Shown in pieces: positions 35,789 through 46,250 of a stretch of DNA of 64,000 bases. Position 1 is the stretch's first letter. Every line of letters begins with the position of its first letter. Source of the DNA: a virus; IMG/VR virus record IMGVR_UViG_3300047548_000297, positions 2,806-66,805 of that record; one strand, written 5' to 3'. A program made the position numbers and the translations under genes. Under the pieces are notes generated by a model. The model had not been told where the DNA came from and did no database searches. It saw only the letters and a program-made list of their open reading frames with translations.

Positions 35789-37006
35789 TTATGACACGCT
35801 AAAATATAAACCAGATTTATGTCTTACTACACCATCAAGCGTAGTTCTAGGTTTTATATAGTTATTCTCCATACTAGAAATTACACTAGGAGTACTAGTA
35901 ACAGTCTCAGTTGGTTCTGGACTAATGTACGAAACATCTTTAGTAGGCTGTTCCTGTACTGTGCGTGTAGTAGGTGGCTTAAGATTGGCAGAAATGGTGG
36001 CAGGTGTCTGAGTTGTCACTACGTTAGTAGCATGTTCGTATACAGGCTTTTTCTTCTGCTCTTGTACTTTAGTATCAAGCGCTATAGAGTTAGCGTCTAT
36101 ATAGTCACCAACAGTAGAGCTAGAACCTCCTATATTACTGCGTATGGCATTTTGTATTTTGGTAGGAAGATCCGATATTTTTGTACTACGAGCTGAAGTT
36201 AATATATACTTGGCATTCGGTCCACCTATCTGTAGTGCTAGATATGTCGCTATACTAGAATCAAACTTACCAACAAATTTCTTATCTGCGACTAATAATC
36301 GTATTCCAGCATCTATGTTGTCAAGTATATTAAATCTATTACCAAGACCCATCAGGTTAGCCGTAGCACCTGTAAACTGAAATATACCAATTGCTCCAGT
36401 TGAGGACACTGCATTTGGATTACCACCAGATTCCACTATAGCTATTTTTACTGCTATATCTTGATTTACTCCGTATTCAGCAGCTTTCGCTCGTATCAAG
36501 CCTTCAATCTTTGGGTTTATACGTGTCTTATATGCAGTAGTGTCTGCTCCACTGGCTCTAAGTTGAATGATACGTTCAGCTTCTTCTTTTGTATACGTTC
36601 CATTACTAGGAAGTTTGCCCAAAAGCCCAAGCTCTTTAGGTGACTTCCTAGTAATTGAACTTTGTATACCATCCCCTTTTGGTATATCCCAGGTGGTTGA
36701 TGTACTACTAACCTGAACAGGAGACGAAGATGGAAGATTTGGATTGGTAGAAGTAGAACTGCTACTTGTTAGTTTATCTATAAGTTCAGATAATTTTTCT
36801 AAGCCAGATTTAATTTTATCCTGTGATACAAAACTCTTTATGTAGGAGTATACAGGTACGCTAGCAACGGCTATGTTAGGTAGTGTATTAAGTATAGAAG
36901 AAAGTAGAACACCAGAGGTTGAGGTTGATCTTAGTAGACCCTGTTCTTCTAAATCAACCTCAACTAGGGTATTCTTTACTAGATTAGCTAAAGAAAAGAA
37001 GCTCAT
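35789..37006 (-). CDS. virion lytic transglycosylase (SLT domain)
   Basis: IAIVESGGNPNAVSSTGAIGIFQF...NIDAG. Confidence 0.88.
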   Translation of the reverse strand: MSFFSLANLVKNTLVEVDLEEQGLLRSTSTSGVLLSSILNTLPNIAVASVPVYSYIKSFVSQDKIKSGLEKLSELIDKLTSSSSTSTNPNLPSSSPVQVSSTSTTWDIPKGDGIQSSITRKSPKELGLLGKLPSNGTYTKEEAERIIQLRASGADTTAYKTRINPKIEGLIRAKAAEYGVNQDIAVKIAIVESGGNPNAVSSTGAIGIFQFTGATANLMGLGNRFNILDNIDAGIRLLVADKKFVGKFDSSIATYLALQIGGPNAKYILTSARSTKISDLPTKIQNAIRSNIGGSSSTVGDYIDANSIALDTKVQEQKKKPVYEHATNVVTTQTPATISANLKPPTTRTVQEQPTKDVSYISPEPTETVTSTPSVISSMENNYIKPRTTLDGVVRHKSGLYFSVS

Positions 37007-37007
37007 A

Positions 37008-40000
37008 TTAGGATGCCATCATTCCTGCGTTCATTATAAAGAATGAACTATCTAGAAAAGAGAATGTATCTATCTTGGAGCTTTGCTGACTAGGGGCACT
37101 TGGCACTATACTGGGAACTATAGGTGTAGAAGAACTAGCAGGTTTCGCGGCAGAAGTTTCATACGTTGGTTTTACTGAAGTAGGAGAAGTTTGAACTTGA
37201 GTTCTGGTTGTATTACTAGTAGCTACAGGAGGAACCGATTGCTGTCCAACATAGCTAAGGTGCCAAGGTTCTCCCTTGACGTTTCTAGCAAATCCATACT
37301 TTGACAGTAGGCCCATGGATTCAAGTTCACCAGCAGTGGCTCTGTCTATATCCAATGCTTTACCTTGCTCGTGTAAGGAGTGTCCTGGCTTAGCTGCTAT
37401 AGTTGGATTAGCCGCGTAGAGTTTAGCCTGCTGTTCTGTACTTCTACGTGCGGATTCTATACTAAGAGGTTTTGTTCCTCCGTTAGCTCTATACTCCTGA
37501 GCCATACTCTCAAAACTAGACTTTACTGTTGGGTCTAGATTATCGAAATCCACAGAAGACTTATTAGTAGAGAATAGTTTGCCGACACTACTAGATATAT
37601 AGGTTTTAGCACCAGACGCTGATGTACTTATACTATCAACGGTACTACCTACGGCAGATTTTACTGAAGTTCCTACTTGTCCTACCTTGTCAGAAACTAT
37701 AGTTGCAGCTCTAGACGCACCCTTTGATATGTATTCTGCTCCTCTACTTATTGGATTCGTATCCCACCAGTTAGAAAGCTTCGTACCAGTTGCTTTTAGT
37801 TTATCAGCGGGTTTCTGTAACAGACCTACTACGTAGTCATATCCGTCCTTTAGACCTTGTACTATGTTAGTAGCTGTGTTTATTACGCTATCTATTGCAT
37901 CTAGTATCTCAGTAGAGTACTTGTCATACAGCTTTGTTCCCAGTTCCCAACCGGCGTAAGCGCTTCCAGCTAATGCTACTGCAGGGAGCGCAAAACTAGC
38001 TAGTCTAGGAGCATACTTAGCTATATTGGGAAGAACTGATTTTATTAGCTTTCCAGTACCACCCCCAATAACGGCCTCTATTGATGATATGGCTTTTGTT
38101 ATTAGTGGGCTACCTATTAATCCACTAAGCATACCAGACAAATTTATACCACCTGTCTGACCAGACCTAGACTTGGATCTACTTATCCTCTGTACGGCTG
38201 ATACAAGTTTGGCTCGGTCGTTACGCTCTTCAGCACGGTAAGAGTCTTCTGCCAACAACTCGTCTTTACTCTTGCTAGGAGACAGAGCTATTTTTTTGTA
38301 TGCATTGTCTACAGTATATGATATTACTGTTTTTAATCCAGTAGTAGGTTTAGTTAAAATCTTATCTATGACTGCATTAGCTTTTATAAAGTTCCAAACC
38401 TTAGATTCTGCATATGGATTAGAGGTTTTAGCCGTATCTGCAAGTATCTTATCCAAGTGTTTGTCTAGTACTTCTAGCTGTTCTTGTATATGTTCGCTAG
38501 CTAGTAGAAGTTCGGTTAGCTTAGACTCATGAACCGTATCTATTTTTTTATCTTCTACCTGTTCTGACCTAAGCTCATTTAGTACGCTAGTCTGTTTACT
38601 GTCTACTGTAACTGAAGTATGTATAGAAGATAATGGATTAGTAGTCTCATCTTGTACAGTAGTAGAGAGTTTAGACTTATCTTTACTAGTAGTTACTCCA
38701 GACAGGAATTCTTCTAGTGCGTCACTAACTACTTCCTTTAAGTCTTCCAGAGAAAAGTCTTGCTCGGTTAAATCTGCTGGTATATAAGGTACGTGTTCGT
38801 CTATTCTGTCTAATACATCGTCTATGAATAGCTCGGCTCTCGGGGCGCTAAGCCCAGAGTTCATCTTAGGAAGCTGTGTTGGTCTAGACAGAATAGATAG
38901 GGGAAATCCAGCACTAACCTTTCCTGAGTTAAGCACAGGTAGTTCTGTAGGCTGCTTTAGTAGGTCTAAAGGAAATCCAGGTTTTTTACTGGGCGTACTG
39001 TTTGGTGTTCCGGTAGTAGTTTCAGAATCAGGAGGTATAGTTGGTTTAGCATAAGTTGGTTCTAAACCAGACATATCTGGTTCTGACTTACTCGGAACAC
39101 TACTAGCTAAACTGATAGGAGAGAACGAGTTCTTTACAAAGTTTGATATTAAACCTACACTGCTTTTTGCTTTACGTACAGCAGATCCTACCCCATAGCC
39201 AGTACCGTACATGGTACGGCTAATCAGACTAGAAGCGCCTTTAGGTCTGGATCGTAGGTCACTAACTTTAGTTGCAACTCTATTTCCTAGAGAACCTAAG
39301 TATTTTCCAGAAGCTTTGATACCCCGTACCGATCCTGAACCTGCAGAGCGTATGACCCTACCTGATAAACTAAACGCACCTGTAGCCAAATCACTCAGAG
39401 AGCTTGCTAGCAGTCTTCCTGTAGAGCTAGCCAGTACACCAGCCCCCTCAAGAGCTTTGTATCCTAGGTACTTAATCGGCTTTGCTACTAGGTACTTTAA
39501 GGGTTTACCTATGAGAGTTCTTGTTATTGGGTTGTTTACAACCTTATATCCAGCATATAGCGCTAATCCGGCTGGCCCAAGATGTTTTAAAACTCCATGC
39601 ACGTAGGAGTCTAATCTAGCTGCCCCAGACAGTTTTTTCTTTTTACTACCAAATATACTTGGATAGGATGTTGATGAACTAGGGCGGGTGGTTCTACGGT
39701 CTTTAGGTTTATTTTTTAGTCTAAAGGCTTCGTCTATATCTCTAGACTTTCTAGCAAGCGTTCTAAACTCTAGTCGCTTGGAGTACTCAATCAAGGAATC
39801 TTCAATAGCAACTTTGGCTGAAACGAATCCTTCAAAGTTGCTGTTATTTATAGACTGAATGCCCTGCTCTAGACTATATATAAAGTTATCAATACGTGCT
39901 CTACGTTCATTTAGTATGTCTCTAGTTTTACTAGAATTTGAGGATATACTAGCTTCTATTTCCAGATTAGATAAAGTAGCTGAAGCCTCGTTACGTAGCG

Positions 40001-40703
40001 AAGACCATTTAGCTTTATAGAAGTTCTTGTTGCGTCTAAAGTCTTCTTTGAGCGCGGCTTTATCCGCTTTTTGTTCGCGTTTAAACTCACGCTTGTCTAT
40101 GTCTGGACGACTACCTGAAGAAGACAACTCACCTAGTAACAAAGATACAAATCGTGTCAACGGATGCATGACACTAGATTTAATGTAGTATAGAGCGTCG
40201 TTGAATGCTTTTAGAGATTCAGCCGCATCAGAGCTTTCTATTAGTGTAACAAGACTAGGAAGGCGTTTCATTAAATGAAAGTATACGTCTTTTCCTAGCT
40301 TGTTAGCTATGATATCAGTCTTTGGTACGTCCTTCAGTATTAGGTTGTACTTTCCCATAAAAATCATTATTAAATGGGAAAGTCTATTTATGTATTCTAC
40401 CCTAAGCTGAGGCGAACTAAGCTTTTCTAGTTTATCAGACTTAATGGCTAGTATAAGCAAACTGGATTCTAATTTAGATGCACGTACTAGATGACTATAG
40501 TAAGTCTGCCTTAGAGCTAGGTTTTTTGAGTATAGTTTCTTTAAATCTACAGACTCGCCCGCTATTTTAGACGTAAGGCTGACTATAAAACTAGGAAGTT
40601 CTTTTGGTGGTAAACGCCTAAAACTACTAGAAGCCTTAAGAGCATCTTGTTCCGCAAGAACTTCTGCAGTAGTAGAAGGTAGTATGCTAGATGGTAATGC
40701 CAC
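37008..40703 (-). CDS. tape-measure-like protein with C-terminal M15 (VanY-like) peptidase
   Basis: Long, helical and A/G/S-rich, located after the chaperone; SARRS..QQ.KLY, PGHSLHEQGKALDI and EPWH. GTG start after AAGGAG. Confidence 0.8.
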   Translation of the reverse strand: MALPSSILPSTTAEVLAEQDALKASSSFRRLPPKELPSFIVSLTSKIAGESVDLKKLYSKNLALRQTYYSHLVRASKLESSLLILAIKSDKLEKLSSPQLRVEYINRLSHLIMIFMGKYNLILKDVPKTDIIANKLGKDVYFHLMKRLPSLVTLIESSDAAESLKAFNDALYYIKSSVMHPLTRFVSLLLGELSSSGSRPDIDKREFKREQKADKAALKEDFRRNKNFYKAKWSSLRNEASATLSNLEIEASISSNSSKTRDILNERRARIDNFIYSLEQGIQSINNSNFEGFVSAKVAIEDSLIEYSKRLEFRTLARKSRDIDEAFRLKNKPKDRRTTRPSSSTSYPSIFGSKKKKLSGAARLDSYVHGVLKHLGPAGLALYAGYKVVNNPITRTLIGKPLKYLVAKPIKYLGYKALEGAGVLASSTGRLLASSLSDLATGAFSLSGRVIRSAGSGSVRGIKASGKYLGSLGNRVATKVSDLRSRPKGASSLISRTMYGTGYGVGSAVRKAKSSVGLISNFVKNSFSPISLASSVPSKSEPDMSGLEPTYAKPTIPPDSETTTGTPNSTPSKKPGFPLDLLKQPTELPVLNSGKVSAGFPLSILSRPTQLPKMNSGLSAPRAELFIDDVLDRIDEHVPYIPADLTEQDFSLEDLKEVVSDALEEFLSGVTTSKDKSKLSTTVQDETTNPLSSIHTSVTVDSKQTSVLNELRSEQVEDKKIDTVHESKLTELLLASEHIQEQLEVLDKHLDKILADTAKTSNPYAESKVWNFIKANAVIDKILTKPTTGLKTVISYTVDNAYKKIALSPSKSKDELLAEDSYRAEERNDRAKLVSAVQRISRSKSRSGQTGGINLSGMLSGLIGSPLITKAISSIEAVIGGGTGKLIKSVLPNIAKYAPRLASFALPAVALAGSAYAGWELGTKLYDKYSTEILDAIDSVINTATNIVQGLKDGYDYVVGLLQKPADKLKATGTKLSNWWDTNPISRGAEYISKGASRAATIVSDKVGQVGTSVKSAVGSTVDSISTSASGAKTYISSSVGKLFSTNKSSVDFDNLDPTVKSSFESMAQEYRANGGTKPLSIESARRSTEQQAKLYAANPTIAAKPGHSLHEQGKALDIDRATAGELESMGLLSKYGFARNVKGEPWHLSYVGQQSVPPVATSNTTRTQVQTSPTSVKPTYETSAAKPASSSTPIVPSIVPSAPSQQSSKIDTFSFLDSSFFIMNAGMMAS

Positions 40704-40718
40704 AAAAGGCTCCTTTAA

Positions 40719-40868
40719 TTACTTATTGTTACGGGCTTCTCGTTTGTTTTTGGCCTTAGCCGTCAAGAAGAGAAAGTTCTTGATAGGCATACTGAAGTCT
40801 ATAAGTATAGAAAACTCCTCAGCCACAAGGGACTGAGATTCTAGCATATATTCTTCAGTATAAAGGTC
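40719..40868 (-). CDS. 49-codon +1-frame extension of the tail assembly chaperone (or a 42-aa standalone ORF from ATG 40847)
   Basis: The open frame DLYTEEYMLESQSLVAEEF...KREARNNK* fills the chaperone-TMP gap and begins at CTT-TGA-C. Confidence 0.55.
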   Translation of the reverse strand, partial: DLYTEEYMLESQSLVAEEFSILIDFSMPIKNFLFLTAKAKNKREARNNK

Positions 40869-41826
40869 AAAGAAACGAGTGCGCTGAGATAGAGATTTTA
40901 GTCTCCGACTCAGCGCGACACTCCGGGCAGGTAAAACGAATAGACTCCTCTACGCCGTAGGCTGATACTAGAGTACGGAACTGTTCAATGACGTGTAGAT
41001 TTTCTGCAGTTAGGCTCTCAACGAATTCACATCTAGCCTGCATACTAAGTCTGGGTGTACTAGTATCTTTATTTTGTAGATATCCAGCATAGTCAACTAG
41101 ATACTCAATCTCTGGATAATTCTCATGCTCTAGCAGATTTTCCTCAATATCCACTATGTCTACTATGCAGGACGGAGCCAAAGCAAACGGGGTGCCTTCA
41201 AGAAAGGATAGATCTGCAGTTTCTAAGAAATCTTCCAGTGGCTTGGGATCGAACACGGTTTCATTTAGAATAGACTTACTAAGCGTGTGAACTGATACCA
41301 GAGATTCTTTTGGTAGATCTCCAGTTTTTACTTTGTGTACATGCTTAGGACTTGTACAAACTGCTGTATGAATTAGCTGTACCTTTGTATAGTAAGTCAT
41401 TCTAATCCAGTATAGCAGCCAGTAAAAGTCTGGAATAGTTAGATCCCAAGCTGAAATACCTTCTGGTAGTAGCGTAGAAATAGCATCAACCATGTACCTA
41501 GTGCGTTTCTCTTTAGCCGCACGGGCAAACTTTGCTTGATGGAATCCTAGTACTGGACCTACACCAAGAGTATCAAAGTCATAGAAATAGAAGTTAGACG
41601 GAAGATCTGCATTTAGATACTTAGGATCTAACTGCTCAATAGGCTTTTTGAATTCCTGTAGAACTAGGTTATCAACTTCATCTAGCTGTGTAGCTATAAC
41701 TGCCGGTCTACGGGCTTGAGGTTGATTGTTCGTACTGGGTGCGCCAGAAACCTTCTTTGGAGGGAGCTTGAAGGAGGCACTAGATTCTTGGGTCGATCCA
41801 AGATCAGAGATGTTTACACTAGTCAT
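40867..41826 (-). CDS. tail assembly chaperone / baseplate hub assembly protein (T4 gp26-like)
   Basis: LPS...Y, DLT..DF..LL..IR...Y and C-terminal CPEC; directly upstream of the TMP. Confidence 0.75.
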   Translation of the reverse strand: MTSVNISDLGSTQESSASFKLPPKKVSGAPSTNNQPQARRPAVIATQLDEVDNLVLQEFKKPIEQLDPKYLNADLPSNFYFYDFDTLGVGPVLGFHQAKFARAAKEKRTRYMVDAISTLLPEGISAWDLTIPDFYWLLYWIRMTYYTKVQLIHTAVCTSPKHVHKVKTGDLPKESLVSVHTLSKSILNETVFDPKPLEDFLETADLSFLEGTPFALAPSCIVDIVDIEENLLEHENYPEIEYLVDYAGYLQNKDTSTPRLSMQARCEFVESLTAENLHVIEQFRTLVSAYGVEESIRFTCPECRAESETKISISAHSFL

Positions 41827-41846: not shown

Positions 41847-42845
41847 TTAGAAAAAGCTCTTTATCTTTCCAAGAGCAGAGGATGCGGCACTTTCGGCTCT
41901 ACCTCTAACGGAGTCTAGCACGCTTTCGGCTTTACTAAAAGTGTCATTTCTTAGCTTATTTACTTCTTGTCCAAATCTATCTTCTAGATAAGACTTAGGA
42001 GTTGTATTACGTATATCACTGGACATGGCTGCAAGAGCAGATGATCTACTTCTAATAAGGTCGTCATTTACGCTTATGCATTCTATAGTATCAACAGACA
42101 GTGTAGCACTAGCAGATATTGGAGTAGCAGCTCCAGAGGTGAAGTCATACCCGTCTAGAATGGAAGTTGGAAAACATCCCCCTAGAACGAAACGGGCACT
42201 TACTGTTCCGTATGGGTCTAGAAGAGATATCATTATCTGCTTTTTATATTCAAACGCTCCTGTAAATGTTCCTAGTTTATTGCTATATCCAGCGTTTGCC
42301 CAAGATAGCATAAACTTGGAAGCAGTTCCAGTAACATCTTCATATAGTTTTATATTGCAGGAATTTATAGTTAAGCCTGCTATATAGTTACGTTCTACAC
42401 CTTCTCTAAATACAGCGTGCTGTTCTAGAGTTATACTAGGTACAGATATCTCTTCTATATATATAGGAGCTATTAGTTCGTCAACCTCATTGATGCTTAT
42501 TATCTGAGCTTCCCAACAAAAATTCATCTGTGGATCGGGTCTGGACGTTGCTTGATTCAATGTGGAGTTCGGATCAGTGCTCCAAACTTTGGTTGGAGCT
42601 TTTGGCTCACTACCAAATAGATCTTGAATGCCTCCAACTTTAGTAAGTATATCTTTGAACTTTGAATCTATAGTTAGCAGTTTTCGAGCTGTCTTAGACC
42701 TACCAGACAAAGCAGTTAATACACCGCTTATACCTTGAGCTGTATTTGGATTCTTTAGTCCACGTACAACTTGAGATCCAGTACCAGAGATCGAACTAAC
42801 TTTTGATATAGTGTTTAGGGCAGTATTAAATACAGATAATCCCAT
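41847..42845 (-). CDS. tail-tube-fold protein (gp19/gp54-like)
   Basis: EISVPSI, IKLYED, YKKQI.I.LLD and L.GCFPT. Confidence 0.7.
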   Translation of the reverse strand: MGLSVFNTALNTISKVSSISGTGSQVVRGLKNPNTAQGISGVLTALSGRSKTARKLLTIDSKFKDILTKVGGIQDLFGSEPKAPTKVWSTDPNSTLNQATSRPDPQMNFCWEAQIISINEVDELIAPIYIEEISVPSITLEQHAVFREGVERNYIAGLTINSCNIKLYEDVTGTASKFMLSWANAGYSNKLGTFTGAFEYKKQIMISLLDPYGTVSARFVLGGCFPTSILDGYDFTSGAATPISASATLSVDTIECISVNDDLIRSRSSALAAMSSDIRNTTPKSYLEDRFGQEVNKLRNDTFSKAESVLDSVRGRAESAASSALGKIKSFF

Positions 42846-42865
42846 ATAATTTTCTCCAGTTTGAC

Positions 42866-42873
42866 TAAAATTG
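42866..42873 (-). promoter_or_regulatory. CAATTT promoter-like motif
   Basis: Minus-strand CACAATTTTAG lies between the terminator and the ATG at 42845. Confidence 0.5.
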
Positions 42874-42883
42874 TGACCCTGGC

Positions 42884-42923
42884 AAAAAGGCTCGCTGTGT
42901 ATCGATACACAGCGAGCCTTTTT
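42884..42923. terminator. 40-bp perfect palindrome / bidirectional terminator
   Basis: AAAAAGGCTCGCTGTGTATC|GATACACAGCGAGCCTTTTT. Confidence 0.85.
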
Positions 42924-42927
42924 ATGC

Positions 42928-43731
42928 TTACGATATAGTCAGTGCTGGACGAATTGTAATTTCACCTGTGCCGTTTCTAGTGACCGCAGGTTGAGTTACA
43001 GTCTTGGTGGTTCCATCTACGTATGTAACAGTGTACGCATCAACGCACTTGAAAGTAGCGTTAACCGTAGTAGCTGTAAATACGCCACTAGCTCCGTTAG
43101 GCCAAGTAACCGGGGATGAAGTAACAACACCATTAGCATCTAGTGTTCTAGTGCCAGTGAAGATTTCCGACGGATCAGTAGCAAATGACTTAAGCCAAGC
43201 ATCAGAACCCAAAGCTGCATACCTAGCATCACCCCTAGTAGTATTTAGATACTGAGTATGGTCATCGCCAGTAGTAAGACCAGTTAGATCGCTGTGAGCA
43301 GAAACACCAGTACCTCCACCAGTAATATTACCTGCGTCTGCATCGTCTTTTGACCGTCCTATTACAGTACGAATACCAAGATTAGGATTTAGGATACCAG
43401 AAGGATCCGAAATGGAGTAGTATACTGGAGTTCCAGGGGGCGCAACAGCATTAACTAGAATAGTTCTAAACGTAGTTGAACCAGATCCAGTATCTAGCCA
43501 GAAAGTACCAACTGCAATAGGAGCTGTGGGCTTAGTGCTACTAACGGTAACCGAGATATTTGTAGCAGGAGTATATGCGCCGTAATGCGCTCTGTTATCT
43601 ACGTCTAGGACTACAGTAACAGGATTAGAAATAGTGTATCCAGCGTTGAGTGCTATGGACAAAATGCGCTCAATGATCTGAGCGTAGGTCATGTCCGACG
43701 TAATGTTATTAAATGCTTTGTTGGAGGCCAT
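42928..43731 (-). CDS. virion fibre/decoration protein
   Basis: HSDLTGL..GDDHTQY fibre motif; C-terminal domain shared with 55008..55799. Confidence 0.65.
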   Translation of the reverse strand: MASNKAFNNITSDMTYAQIIERILSIALNAGYTISNPVTVVLDVDNRAHYGAYTPATNISVTVSSTKPTAPIAVGTFWLDTGSGSTTFRTILVNAVAPPGTPVYYSISDPSGILNPNLGIRTVIGRSKDDADAGNITGGGTGVSAHSDLTGLTTGDDHTQYLNTTRGDARYAALGSDAWLKSFATDPSEIFTGTRTLDANGVVTSSPVTWPNGASGVFTATTVNATFKCVDAYTVTYVDGTTKTVTQPAVTRNGTGEITIRPALTIS

Positions 43732-43748
43732 TACTATTCATCCTTAGT

Positions 43749-44258
43749 TTAAGGGGCTAGGTCTTCAGTATAGTCGAAACTAAACTGGACTGCATAGGTA
43801 ACTACTGTGGAAGTAGAGTCAAAAGACGGCGCACTGGTATCAGTTGGGAACACACCAATCATTTTTACTCTACGTATGATCTGCGGTAGATCATCATATA
43901 GAATGATTTCTACTGGAATAGAATATACAGACTTATACGTACCAGAATTACCTACCCAAGAACGAGCTAGTTCTTGCCATGCTATAATAGCATCACGGGT
44001 ACTATTGGTACGAGTTTCAAAGAATGTAGCTGACCAAGTTCCAGTCCAGGTGCGACGACCTGCAAAGTTAAGCTTGATGCCATGAGCTTCAATTGAAGTT
44101 TGCTCAAGCTGTGACTCTGGAATAGTGGTTGACTGACAGCGAATAATTAGTTCTCTGTTAGATCCACCACCCGGAAGAGGTGGAAGAACTAGGTCAAAGT
44201 TATACGCTAGCTGCGGATCTGCCGTGCTTTGCACGTCTTGAAGTGAAGTACGAGCCAT
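43749..44258 (-). CDS. tail tube protein (gp19-like)
   Basis: Follows the sheath; C.STTIP, FAGRRT, W..TF.E, GVFP and F.FDY. Confidence 0.9.
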   Translation of the reverse strand: MARTSLQDVQSTADPQLAYNFDLVLPPLPGGGSNRELIIRCQSTTIPESQLEQTSIEAHGIKLNFAGRRTWTGTWSATFFETRTNSTRDAIIAWQELARSWVGNSGTYKSVYSIPVEIILYDDLPQIIRRVKMIGVFPTDTSAPSFDSTSTVVTYAVQFSFDYTEDLAP

Positions 44259-44281
44259 TTCATTTTTCCTTATAGCTGTTT

Positions 44282-44303
44282 GGTGGGGAGTAAATTCCCC
44301 ACC
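44282..44303 (-). terminator. hairpin between sheath and tube genes
   Basis: GGTGGGGA/TCCCCACC; no clear U-tract on the coding strand. Confidence 0.45.
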
Positions 44304-44312
44304 TAGATTAAT

Positions 44313-46250
44313 TTATAGGCTAGCTAGAGTCTTCTCGTCTACTTCTAAACCTTCCTTGGAGATGACCAAGCTTAGCTGGATTTCTCGCACTGGAATGATA
44401 GGAGTGATGATTATAGCTACGGCTAGAGTTCCGCTATTTACAAGAGCAGGTGGATTGTTAGACGAGTCAATAACTACACGGTATTTAGAGATACCGCGAC
44501 CTGCCTTTACCACGTCTAGGTACTGTTCAAGCGCAAACTGAATCTGTTTGCGCAGAATATCATCATTAGGCTCCTGAAGCGAATAAATCAGGTAGTTATA
44601 CGCAGCGCGCTTTATGATATTACATAGTACACGAATGCTTATGAGCTGAAGAGCAGAACTTCTATTCAACAGAGTGTTCTGTTCCCAGAATGCAATACCC
44701 CTACCAATAAATTTACGAACATACGAGATGTTGGCAAGAGTTACTAGCGTCGCTTCTCCATCATCATAGGCTTCACGAATGCCAAGCGTAATGCCGTTTA
44801 GTTGGCCTCTATTTAGGCCAGCAGTCGAGAACCATGGCTGAGTAGAGCGGAAGGTTCTAGCCAGAAGTCCAGCTATAGCGCCCGAAGGAGGAACATACAG
44901 CAGCTTTCCATTGATGGGATCAGACTGTAGCAAGTCTTGAGCAAGTAGAGCAGAGTATGAAGAATTTAGATTTAGATCTAAGTTTCTGAAGTCTACTACT
45001 GACTGGGCGCTTTGCTTGGTAGATGGAGCATCTAGGTACGCAACACAGTCATTTCTGGTTTGTGCTACATAGTCCATGTATCGCTGTACGATAACTGAAG
45101 TCTTTCCACTGTTGATAAGAACATCAAGCGTATATAGTTCTTTGTTGAGGAAAACAGACCACTTGTTATTTATATCAGCTGTAGTTGGTGCTGTACCAGA
45201 ACTACCACCAGCAAGATTAGCTTTCGGAGCTGAGTACAGAACTGGAGTTGATACAAGCATACCAACGTTAGACTGTACTCTAATATAACGAGAGAAAGGA
45301 TTGATTCTCTGTGTAACCTCCATCTGTGCGCCAGTATCATCCGTCTGTTCAGTTAGCGAGCAGTTAAAACTCTCTACTGGAACACTGGTAGATACAGAAG
45401 TATCGTATACACGAAGAGTAAACAGTGGTGAAGGAGCAGCTAGACCAGCAGTGCTAGTAATAGGTGGCTTCGTAATATCAGGCGTTATAATACCTAGGTC
45501 TTGGAAGCTAAGTGTAGCAGCGCCAACTTGAGCTATAAGATACATGTTACCAGATACTCTACCGTATACCTTGTAACCAATAGCTCCGGTTAGAGCAGGC
45601 CAGTTTACGGTAATGGTATTAGTAGTTGTAGCAGAACCAACTACGACGGTTAGAGGTGCTGAAGCCAAAGTTTCAGTACCACCAGCAGCAATAGCTGAAA
45701 CCACGTATTCATACGTAGCTGCAACTAGTTGACCGCCAACAGAAGTTGTAGTTCCGGTTAGACCTGTAACGGTTTCGAGGTTTGCAGCTTCCATAGAAAC
45801 CGCGAGATTATTACCTAGTGAACCTTGTCCCCTAGCCGGAGTTATTAGGTAGAGTGGAGTTTCAGTAACTGGTGTGTAAGAACCCCAGTCAGGATTGTCT
45901 GGATCAACAACACCAGCAGGTAGACCAGCAACTACAGTCTTTAGCGAGGCGTTTAGTTTGATAACTGCCGCCGCGTATTTTGCACCTGCACCTGTAGCTC
46001 TAATAGCCCACAGGGAATTACCTTCACGCAGATAGTCTAGGGCTGCATAATGATCATACGAAACTGCAGCATTTGGATTACCATAATCGAATAGGAAGTC
46101 ATCAGGACTAGAATAGAACGTAGCCTTGTCTCTGCCTTGAGCTGATACAACTACAATAGCAGCAGTAGCAGCACTAACTCCACTTAGAGAAGTACTTAGA
46201 TCAACCTCATTTATGCGCACATCACTGGCGCGTCTAGCAAGAACTGCCAT
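44313..46250 (-). CDS. tail sheath protein
   Basis: V.INEVDLS, YVPPSG.IAG, PWFSTAGLNRG, IRVL, EPND and VID.SNN. Confidence 0.95.
   Translation of the reverse strand: MAVLARRASDVRINEVDLSTSLSGVSAATAAIVVVSAQGRDKATFYSSPDDFLFDYGNPNAAVSYDHYAALDYLREGNSLWAIRATGAGAKYAAAVIKLNASLKTVVAGLPAGVVDPDNPDWGSYTPVTETPLYLITPARGQGSLGNNLAVSMEAANLETVTGLTGTTTSVGGQLVAATYEYVVSAIAAGGTETLASAPLTVVVGSATTTNTITVNWPALTGAIGYKVYGRVSGNMYLIAQVGAATLSFQDLGIITPDITKPPITSTAGLAAPSPLFTLRVYDTSVSTSVPVESFNCSLTEQTDDTGAQMEVTQRINPFSRYIRVQSNVGMLVSTPVLYSAPKANLAGGSSGTAPTTADINNKWSVFLNKELYTLDVLINSGKTSVIVQRYMDYVAQTRNDCVAYLDAPSTKQSAQSVVDFRNLDLNLNSSYSALLAQDLLQSDPINGKLLYVPPSGAIAGLLARTFRSTQPWFSTAGLNRGQLNGITLGIREAYDDGEATLVTLANISYVRKFIGRGIAFWEQNTLLNRSSALQLISIRVLCNIIKRAAYNYLIYSLQEPNDDILRKQIQFALEQYLDVVKAGRGISKYRVVIDSSNNPPALVNSGTLAVAIIITPIIPVREIQLSLVISKEGLEVDEKTLASL

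Follow-up and report, generated by a model that had tools for sequence, protein, structure and literature searches.

A conserved, probable frameshift site ahead of a tape-measure-like gene

A programmed ribosomal frameshift very probably joins two open reading frames (ORFs) that lie directly ahead of the tape-measure-like gene in virus record IMGVR_UViG_3300047548_000297, to judge from the sequence comparisons described here. The stretch analysed, referred to as the window, is 64 kb of this 66.8-kb IMG/VR record, which is estimated to be 28% complete, and it comes from a jumbo myovirus, a relative of Ralstonia phage RSL1. The first ORF (40867..41826, minus strand) encodes a protein of 319 amino acids (aa) that ends ...ISISAHSFL-TGA and appears to be a distant relative of T4 gp26 and gp51 (PF12322), and the second is a 49-codon extension in the +1 frame (40722..40868, minus strand). 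The site between them, their frame relation and the coding of the extension are conserved family-wide.

The 319-aa ORF ends in TCG TTT CTT TGA C, preceded by GCG CAC, as an earlier reading of this DNA from its letters only (the sequence-only reading) had accurately reported. Read from the window sequence on the minus strand, TTT occupies 40875-40873, CTT 40872-40870 and the TGA stop 40869-40867, followed by C at 40866. The proposed shift site, UUU CUU UGA C, spans 40866..40875 (minus strand), with UUU as the E-site, CUU as the P-site and UGA as the A-site codon. After the stop the +1 frame begins D-L-Y-T-E-E-Y, reaches an ATG at 40847 and continues to a TAA at 40721-40719; the extension that it encodes starts acidic and ends basic. 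This TAA lies 3 nucleotides (nt) before AAGGAG (40715-40710), the Shine-Dalgarno sequence (SD) of the tape-measure-like ORF, whose GTG start is at 40703, which confirms the earlier description of a 49-codon frame (40868-40722) stopping just ahead of that SD. The 27 codons 5' of the TGA are also open in the +1 frame. Two further statements of the sequence-only reading were borne out, namely that most other genes end in TAA and that there is no internal SD upstream of the site. The stops of the 57 non-overlapping ORFs of at least 80 aa in the window are TAA in 41, TGA in nine and TAG in seven, and only the 319-aa ORF among them ends in CTT-stop; direct inspection of the sequence 5' of the shift site (...ATC TCA GCG CAC TCG) gave no SD-like run. 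By our own estimate, a 49-codon open frame would by itself occur by chance a few times in 100. The arrangement exceeds chance because it is conserved across relatives, and the window alone would not show this.

At the protein level, ..F-L is the exact C-terminus in all 27 homologues recovered by a word-indexed search (32-96% identity), and F318 and L319 are invariant. A HMMER scan using the hypothetical 368-aa shifted product, with TGAC read as D, matched 352 representative clusters. Among the best 150 of these 352, the protein ends exactly at F[LF] in 56 and carries 1-11 extra residues in 85; the remaining nine have no F[LF] in their last 14 residues, and comprise eight variants (..FS, ..FC) and one unrelated sequence. 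The variants (P0136, P0143, P0148, P0160, P0171, P0175, P0250 and P0258) end ..FS, ..FSG, ..FSR.. or ..FC. In 136 of the same 150 the best-scoring stretch stops at query residue 318-325, and in the other 14 it stops sooner; no stretch enters residues 326-368, and no in-frame fusion was found among them.

Junction DNA was gathered at 77 loci from IMG/VR, metagenome contigs and five GenBank/RefSeq records. Seven of these hit a contig end before the junction and 12 were duplicates, leaving 58 non-duplicate junctions including the window. We divided them into group A, the 16 loci with a stop directly after the Phe-Leu/Phe pair, and group B, the other 42, where the zero-frame stop lies 1-9 codons further downstream. 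YTT-T[GA]A is present in all 16 group A loci, and homologues do not lack the motif on which the sequence-only reading was built: 15 of the 16 have TTT CTT T[GA]A, and one has TTC TTT TGA. Because TTT makes up only 41% of Phe codons and CTT only 22% of Leu codons in these same genes, the codon choice TTT CTT is itself conserved. The group A stops are TGA in seven loci, TAA in nine and TAG in none, and the next base is T in eight, C in six and A in two; the lack of TAG (0/16 versus 6/42 elsewhere) is not significant (p about 0.1, by estimate).

In a tree of 50 rows, built without eight very distant ones, 15 of the 16 group A loci fall into a single deep clade (support 98/92), and the sixteenth, L012, is placed separately among other loci. 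Also inside this clade is L031, which has AGA, a rare-looking codon, in place of the stop (CTT AGA TAA). TGA and TAA have switched repeatedly on the tree. A change from T to C at the first base of the stop would be synonymous in the +1 frame and would abolish the stop; since it is absent in the clade, the stop appears to be functional.

The extension is coding and changes frame together with its slippery sequence

The 16 group A extensions are 47-68 aa long and align from residue 1 as [DNK]-x-[YF]-S-[ED]-[ED]-[YF]-[LM]-L.... When a hidden Markov model (HMM) of these extensions was compared with the group B loci in three frames, significant matches were obtained in 30 of 42, 28 of them in the +1 frame and the other two in the -1 frame, with no significant match in frame 0, and every significant match starts at the first codon after the Phe-Leu/Phe pair. 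The 12 non-significant loci comprise nine weak +1 matches, one weak match in frame 0, one weak match in the -1 frame and one locus with nothing. The first 25 columns are gap-free in 38 aligned extensions, and the zero-frame tails after the pair range from 0 to 9 codons. In 11 close pairs, differences in the extension fall at shifted-frame codon positions 1/2/3 in a ratio of 94/52/250, with 187 synonymous versus 104 non-synonymous codons. Over the first eight extension codons of these pairs the corresponding differences number 14/16/30, and the seven codons before ATG 40847, where the sequence-only reading had proposed looking for a coding signal, are conserved as protein in relatives. Searches of Pfam and PHROGs returned nothing for the window extension or for seven homologous small ORFs.

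Two loci, L038 and L046 (which L048 duplicates), form one clade nested among the +1 loci, and their extension lies in the -1 frame. The same pair of codons, both Phe, lies here in TCT TTT TTC C, which contains the canonical -1 heptamer T_TTT_TTC (L038:1368-1380). Since the frame switch came with a matching slippery sequence, which would otherwise be hard to explain, we conclude that the ORFs are probably linked by a frameshift at these two codons. Both TTT-Y and the heptamer are missing from a single locus, L065, which is also alone in lacking a homologous extension. Taken over site, frame and coding, the comparative evidence strongly supports the earlier proposal that a +1 shift yields a short and a C-terminally extended product.

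The most distant clade (L069, L071, L073, L074 and L077) ends ..FEFFRPSS, with TTT TTT CGY and a +1 ORF of 73-75 aa whose homology to the other extensions was not significant by HMM. Its TTT TTT CGY resembles the UUU_CGU motif of influenza PA-X.

Each of the five cultured relatives examined has an annotated small coding sequence (CDS) of 41-64 aa, which is always +1 to the upstream gene; the two are separated by 7, 16, 34 or 1 nt, or overlap. No join between them is given in any of the five GenBank/RefSeq records. For two of the phages, BCSR5 and Motura, the conserved N-terminal residues of the small peptide are present without any start codon. The annotated small-CDS starts in these two phages (L004:3348-3473, L005:3192-3386) are doubtful, that of BCSR5 lying after the conserved N-terminal residues and that of Motura inside the upstream gene.

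Two candidate slips at the same codon pair

From these comparisons we infer that the shift occurs, and likewise its slipping tRNA, its efficiency and its function. Most ribosomes would stop at UGA and release the 319-aa protein, and a minority would shift +1 within UUU_CUU_UGA and translate 49 more codons, giving a 368-aa protein with the same body and an acidic-then-basic tail. At a shifty stop of the prfB type, peptidyl-tRNA-Leu would re-pair from CUU to UUU while the stop waits in the A site. This tRNA-Leu slip, with UGA in the A site as in prfB, is the decoding that we favour, at slightly better than even odds. The weak E-site UUU and a hairpin 4 nt past the stop would help, with no SD upstream. 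By analogy with lambda G/GT, both forms would act together in the assembly of the hub and tape-measure tail, in a ratio set by the efficiency of shifting.

The tRNA-Phe could instead slip from UUU to UUC one codon earlier, with CUU in the A site, which would give a product reading ..SFFD.. rather than ..SFLD... This is a sub-variant of the frameshift explanation and not an alternative to frameshifting, and we regard it as possible, at roughly half the weight of the tRNA-Leu slip. TTT-Y occurs at 57 of the 58 loci, L065 being the sole exception and the one that lacks a homologous extension. Five +1 loci, with TTT CTG G, TTT CTT G, TTT CTT A, TTT TTA C and TTT CTA C, permit only the Phe slip; the most distant clade has TTT TTT CGY; and CUU, the codon that would occupy the A site, accounts for 0-43% of the Leu codons in these genes. 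The affinity of tRNA-Phe is greater for UUC than for UUU, and a UUU_C class of +1 sites has been predicted (Firth et al. 2012, PMC3498833). A Phe slip nevertheless leaves unexplained why a stop follows CTT in 15 of the 16 rows of the deep clade (98/92), where a T-to-C change that is synonymous in the +1 frame would remove it, and why the same arrangement appears again separately in L012.

The sequence-only reading also suggested that the ratio of the two products may be sensitive to host release factor 2 (RF2). As a conserved property this does not hold, because TGA (seven loci) and TAA (nine loci) interchange repeatedly, and the site is not a conserved RF2-specific sensor; the UGA of the window itself would necessarily respond to RF2.

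Predicted RNA structure downstream of the site

A hairpin that encloses ATG 40847 within a 10-bp outer stem is predicted at 40788..40862 (minus strand); it begins 4 nt past the TGA. Its folding energy of -31.9 kcal/mol corresponds to z -3.6, with none of 200 shuffles as good, and a second computation gave z -3.06. Using dinucleotide shuffles, z of -1.9 or lower, together with pairing that begins 1-5 nt past the stop, was found in eight of 13 non-redundant group A loci. To compare sites with controls, mononucleotide shuffles were applied to control windows from the same genes, and near-duplicates were dropped before counting. The 100 nt downstream of the site had a mean z of -1.96 in group A (n = 13) versus -0.51 in 78 controls (p = 7e-4), and of -1.53 in group B (n = 34) versus -0.30 in 202 controls (p = 7e-7). 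The stems are not homologous between clades, the 3' arm in the window lying six codons further on than that of L008, and for this reason ordinary covariation tests are inapplicable. A search of Rfam gave only two sub-threshold chance matches.

In a study of the RF2 site in E. coli, E-site codons with A:U at positions 2 and 3, UUU included, gave the highest +1 shifting (PMC2377451). The weak E-site UUU and the downstream hairpin are likely to be the stimulators here. Group B needs another element that slows the ribosome, since its stop lies 1-9 codons further on; candidates are a CCN or UCC codon after the site, or structure.

A transcriptional role for the hairpin was considered and rejected. 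The window contains a terminator-pattern match at 40817-40838 (minus strand), formed by the inner hairpin stem and then AGTTTTCT; as an attenuator this terminator-like match within the hairpin (40838-40817) is unconvincing, since two such matches were found versus 0.6 +/- 0.9 in shuffled sequence.

The small ORF as an independent gene and other explanations

The ATG at 40845..40847 (minus strand) is in the same frame as the extension and opens a 42-aa ORF, which could be an independent small gene, perhaps translationally coupled, with no fusion and with a stop that only looks slippery. This ATG is present in the window and its two closest relatives, a separate small CDS without a join is annotated in all five GenBank/RefSeq records, several loci of the RSL1 clade carry an SD and ATG for the small ORF, and the best 150 of 352 representative proteins include no in-frame fusion. 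We nevertheless consider an independent gene unlikely. The codons ahead of the ATG are conserved at the protein level, and the column of the window ATG in group A holds ATG in 4/16 loci, TTG in 2/16 and a non-start codon in 10/16. No SD-like match occurs in the 20 nt before ATG 40847, whereas a core match of at least 4 nt precedes 30 of the window's 47 long ORFs, and the ATG is buried in the predicted hairpin. An independent gene would also leave unexplained the conservation of the TTT CTT codons, and it fits poorly with the frame relation, which across gaps of varying size is +1 in 28 loci, -1 with the heptamer in two and in-frame in none. Nor has the 42-aa product been called as a gene in the protein collection.

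At many loci of the RSL1 clade, where AAGGA and ATG make a free small peptide possible, such a peptide may be made alongside the fusion or may replace it. The small-ORF AUG GAU CGG CA of this clade could pair with ..UG CCG AUC UA about 50 nt downstream, hiding the AUG. RNAalifold applied to ten RSL1-clade junctions (L002:3250-3325 and nine related) gave a 6-bp consensus stem with two compensated pairs, which is too weak to support a claim.

Other forms of recoding seem very improbable. A -2 shift on U_UUC_UU (..SFLFD..) would enter the same frame as a +1 shift, with tRNA-Leu(GAG) able to pair at UUC, two bases back; on this sequence its re-pairing cost should be higher than that of +1. The ribosome could also hop 7 nt (CTT TGA C CTT) and land on the second CUU that the window has downstream; that second CTT is missing in most other stop-at-site loci. 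An assembly indel in the T-rich run, or a decaying gene, might be feared where the sequence is one metagenomic contig with an estimated completeness of 28%, and can be practically discounted, given the same arrangement at 58 non-duplicate loci from IMG/VR, metagenomes and five finished genomes of cultured phages.

Returning to the +1 shift at a shifty stop in a tail-assembly gene, several observations weigh against it. The stop is not at the site in 42 of 58 loci, and for this reason it cannot be a general stimulator. TTT-Y is kept in 41 of 42 group B loci, compared with YTT-Y at the second codon in 34 of 42. The stop alternates between TGA and TAA and is followed by a variable base, so that there is no uniform weak-termination context. 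The upstream SD, the main stimulator in prfB, is absent, and z is near 0 downstream in five of 13 non-redundant group A loci. Many RSL1-clade loci have an AAGGA-type SD and an ATG for the small ORF. Some of the 58 loci are near-identical (for example L034/L039 and L043/L044), and not all are independent. The tail-chaperone function, finally, is argued from gene position and a sub-threshold Pfam match.

The 319-aa protein is probably a distant relative of T4 gp26 and gp51

The 319-aa protein matched PF12322 (T4_baseplate) with E = 1.1e-3 and 19.1 bits, under the gathering cut-off of 24.5, in an alignment of near full length (residues 106-312 versus profile positions 35-212 of 219). Its PHROG matches were phrog_13792 (unknown function, 4e-21) and phrog_150 ('baseplate hub', 5e-5). 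PF12322, and no other family, was matched at E<=0.01 by 11 of 28 family members, and the RSL1 homologue scored 23.1 bits. In the ESM Atlas, PF12322 was found in all 30 neighbour clusters, on 17-51% of their members, with a top score of 0.96. An hhalign comparison with a gp51 alignment gave a probability of only 30%, with the register wrong. No tail-assembly-chaperone family in Pfam or PHROGs was matched by the protein at E<=0.01. A PDB search found no relative, the best match (E 0.34) being the regulatory chain of aspartate transcarbamoylase. A related-locus scan with the single protein found no relative, and none of 61 candidate stretches in bacterial genomes was a relative; the alignment of extensions lacked any segment of sufficient conservation for such a scan.

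The gene sits within the baseplate-hub/tape-measure gene cluster. Because of the PF12322 and phrog_150 signals, and because T4 gp26 and gp51 are both PF12322 hub assembly chaperones, its sequence is best called that of a distant gp26/gp51-like hub-assembly gene, at the position of lambda G. The lambda-G-type chaperone identity assigned by the sequence-only reading is not recognisable, the weak match to T4 gp26/gp51 (PF12322) being the only family signal.

C157, H162, C300 and C303 are invariant across 149 aligned homologues. These residues look like a putative zinc-binding site, which would link the middle of the protein to its C-terminus about 15 residues before the shift site.

A tblastn search with the 319-aa protein returned 14 phage records (26-33% identity, genomes of 221-264 kb), from phages with Burkholderia, Ralstonia (RSL1), Achromobacter, Xanthomonas and Erwinia as hosts. 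The family has a single copy in the window's own record, and likewise in a complete virus record of 238.5 kb from the same clade.

One probably frameshifted gene or two paralogues

A 2016 review describes the G-T frameshift as conserved in long-tailed phages 'except T4' (PMC5009743). T4 gp26 and gp51 are listed as hub assembly chaperones in Table 2 of Leiman et al. 2010 (PMC3004832); both are PF12322 and lie within the hub/tape-measure gene cluster. The 208-aa gp26 ends where PF12322 ends (..EFFELL; L078:3803-5229, containing T4 genes 26 and 51). In the 249-aa gp51, PF12322 covers residues 1-201 and about 48 more residues, tagged PF28602, follow ..DVFKLL. The short and long forms predicted for the window resemble gp26 and gp51 in differing after the end of PF12322, the shift site of the window lying within a few residues of that end. 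The two systems differ in that T4 has two separate genes without a frameshift and the window's relatives have one gene per genome; PF12322 matches number one each in RSL1, BcepSauron and BCSR5, none in Motura and two in T4.

Homology between the extension and the C-terminal tail of gp51 was examined and rejected, since hhalign in several forms gave a probability below 1% and only a greedy alignment was collinear; the resemblance is one of positional analogy. The domain ends and copy numbers suggest that the two paralogues of T4 correspond to the two forms made here by frameshifting. More broadly, we offer as a tentative proposal, somewhat less probable than its contrary, that PF12322 proteins are the long-missing G/GT equivalent of T4-type tails, encoded by one frameshifted gene in RSL1-like jumbo phages and by two genes in T4. 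Part of this proposal is that a +1 shift at a shifty stop, a +1 shift without a stop and a -1 shift on a heptamer would all take place at the same codon pair. If it is true, T4 is no longer an exception to the conserved tail-chaperone frameshift, and the family provides a natural series of +1 sites of the UUU_CUU_N type that lack an SD.

Neighbouring genes

All genes of the site region are on the minus strand. The tape-measure-like gene (37008..40703, minus strand; GTG start, AAGGAG at 40710-40715) encodes 1231 aa, with a VanY peptidase domain (PF02557, D-Ala-D-Ala carboxypeptidase, 8.1e-8) at residues 1056-1153. A match to phrog_16823 ('tape measure', 1.4e-9) is confined to the same C-terminal region, and position and size point to a tape-measure role for the protein. 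At 1231 aa it is about twice the length of the corresponding genes in four cultured relatives (543-633 aa). The next gene, at 35789-37006, encodes an SLT transglycosylase protein, which would place two cell-wall enzymes at the tail tip.

Upstream tail genes occupy 41847..46250 (minus strand) and encode a 332-aa protein, a 267-aa ORF product, a 169-aa tail tube and a 645-aa tail sheath. The 332-aa protein has a weak match to the T4 gp19 tube family (PF06841, E 0.0029) and, by analogy with the annotation of a relative, may be a tube initiator. Other matches in these upstream genes were phrog_4542 (3e-11), phrog_45 (2.2e-26), phrog_23 (3.5e-65) and PF04984 (5.3e-9). The same gene order, with the gene directly before the tape-measure gene, is found in five cultured relatives. 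The window contains no tRNA genes.

Significance and comparison with known frameshift systems

The probable shift extends the rule of tail-chaperone frameshifting to a large family, so far unannotated, which comprises at least 352 clusters (50% identity) and belongs to jumbo myoviruses with T4-like hub genes. The family amounts to a natural recoding experiment, in which one codon pair would serve for stop-dependent +1, stop-independent +1 and heptamer -1 shifting without the SD of prfB. Annotation can also be corrected, given that the ORFs are unjoined in five of five records examined, two of which have an implausible start for the small CDS. No description of the site was found in the limited collection of literature searched, and the word 'frameshift' is absent from two related papers in it.

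The +1 site of prfB has the consensus CTT_TGA_C and an upstream SD (Antonov et al. 2013, PMC3711429; Liao et al. 2008, PMC2377451). The window shares with prfB a CUU as final sense codon, immediately 5' of an in-frame UGA and a C, as well as a weak codon in the E site and a +1 frame that encodes the remainder of the protein. Unlike prfB, the site in the window has no internal SD, it has TAA in place of TGA in nine of 16 relatives and it is followed by a predicted downstream hairpin. The shifted product would, moreover, be a minor, extended form of a phage structural-assembly protein, with no autoregulatory logic evident.

A +1 shifty stop, CCC_UGA, is described in the tsh gene of Listeria phages PSA, A118 and A500 (Atkins et al. 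2016, PMC5009743). There, as is proposed for the window, a +1 shift on the final sense codon of a tail gene, ahead of its stop, yields a second product extended at the C-terminus; the P-site codon is CCC (Pro) and the protein the major tail protein in Listeria phages, whereas UUU_CUU and an assembly factor are proposed here. The same review calls the shift in the tail chaperone of the archaeal myovirus HSTV-2 'very likely +1' (Atkins et al. 2016, PMC5009743). HSTV-2 and the window share a proposed +1 shift in the G/GT-position gene of a contractile-tailed virus, although the host domain and the protein family differ. Phage SPP1 is a further case, comparable to the Listeria +1 shifty stops.

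The influenza A PA-X site, UCC_UUU_CGU, has been shown to work by a tRNA-Phe slip (Firth et al. 2012, PMC3498833). The present family resembles it in having UUU_C followed by a seldom-used codon, with TTT-Y in all +1 loci and TTT TTT CGY in the distant clade. PA-X differs in belonging to a eukaryotic virus translated by 80S ribosomes, with no stop involved.

A parallel in gene position exists with lambda G/GT and P2-type systems, where the gene likewise lies directly before the tape-measure gene and the shift is near its 3' end (Atkins et al. 2016, PMC5009743). As for lambda G/GT, a short and a C-terminally extended product are predicted from one start, and the in-frame fused form was not found. 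The family departs from lambda G/GT in that the shift proposed here is +1 at a shifty stop, with a -1 heptamer only in L038 and L046, and in that the protein is larger, at 319 aa, with a zinc-knuckle-like motif pair, an extension of about 50 aa and no match to a tail-chaperone family.

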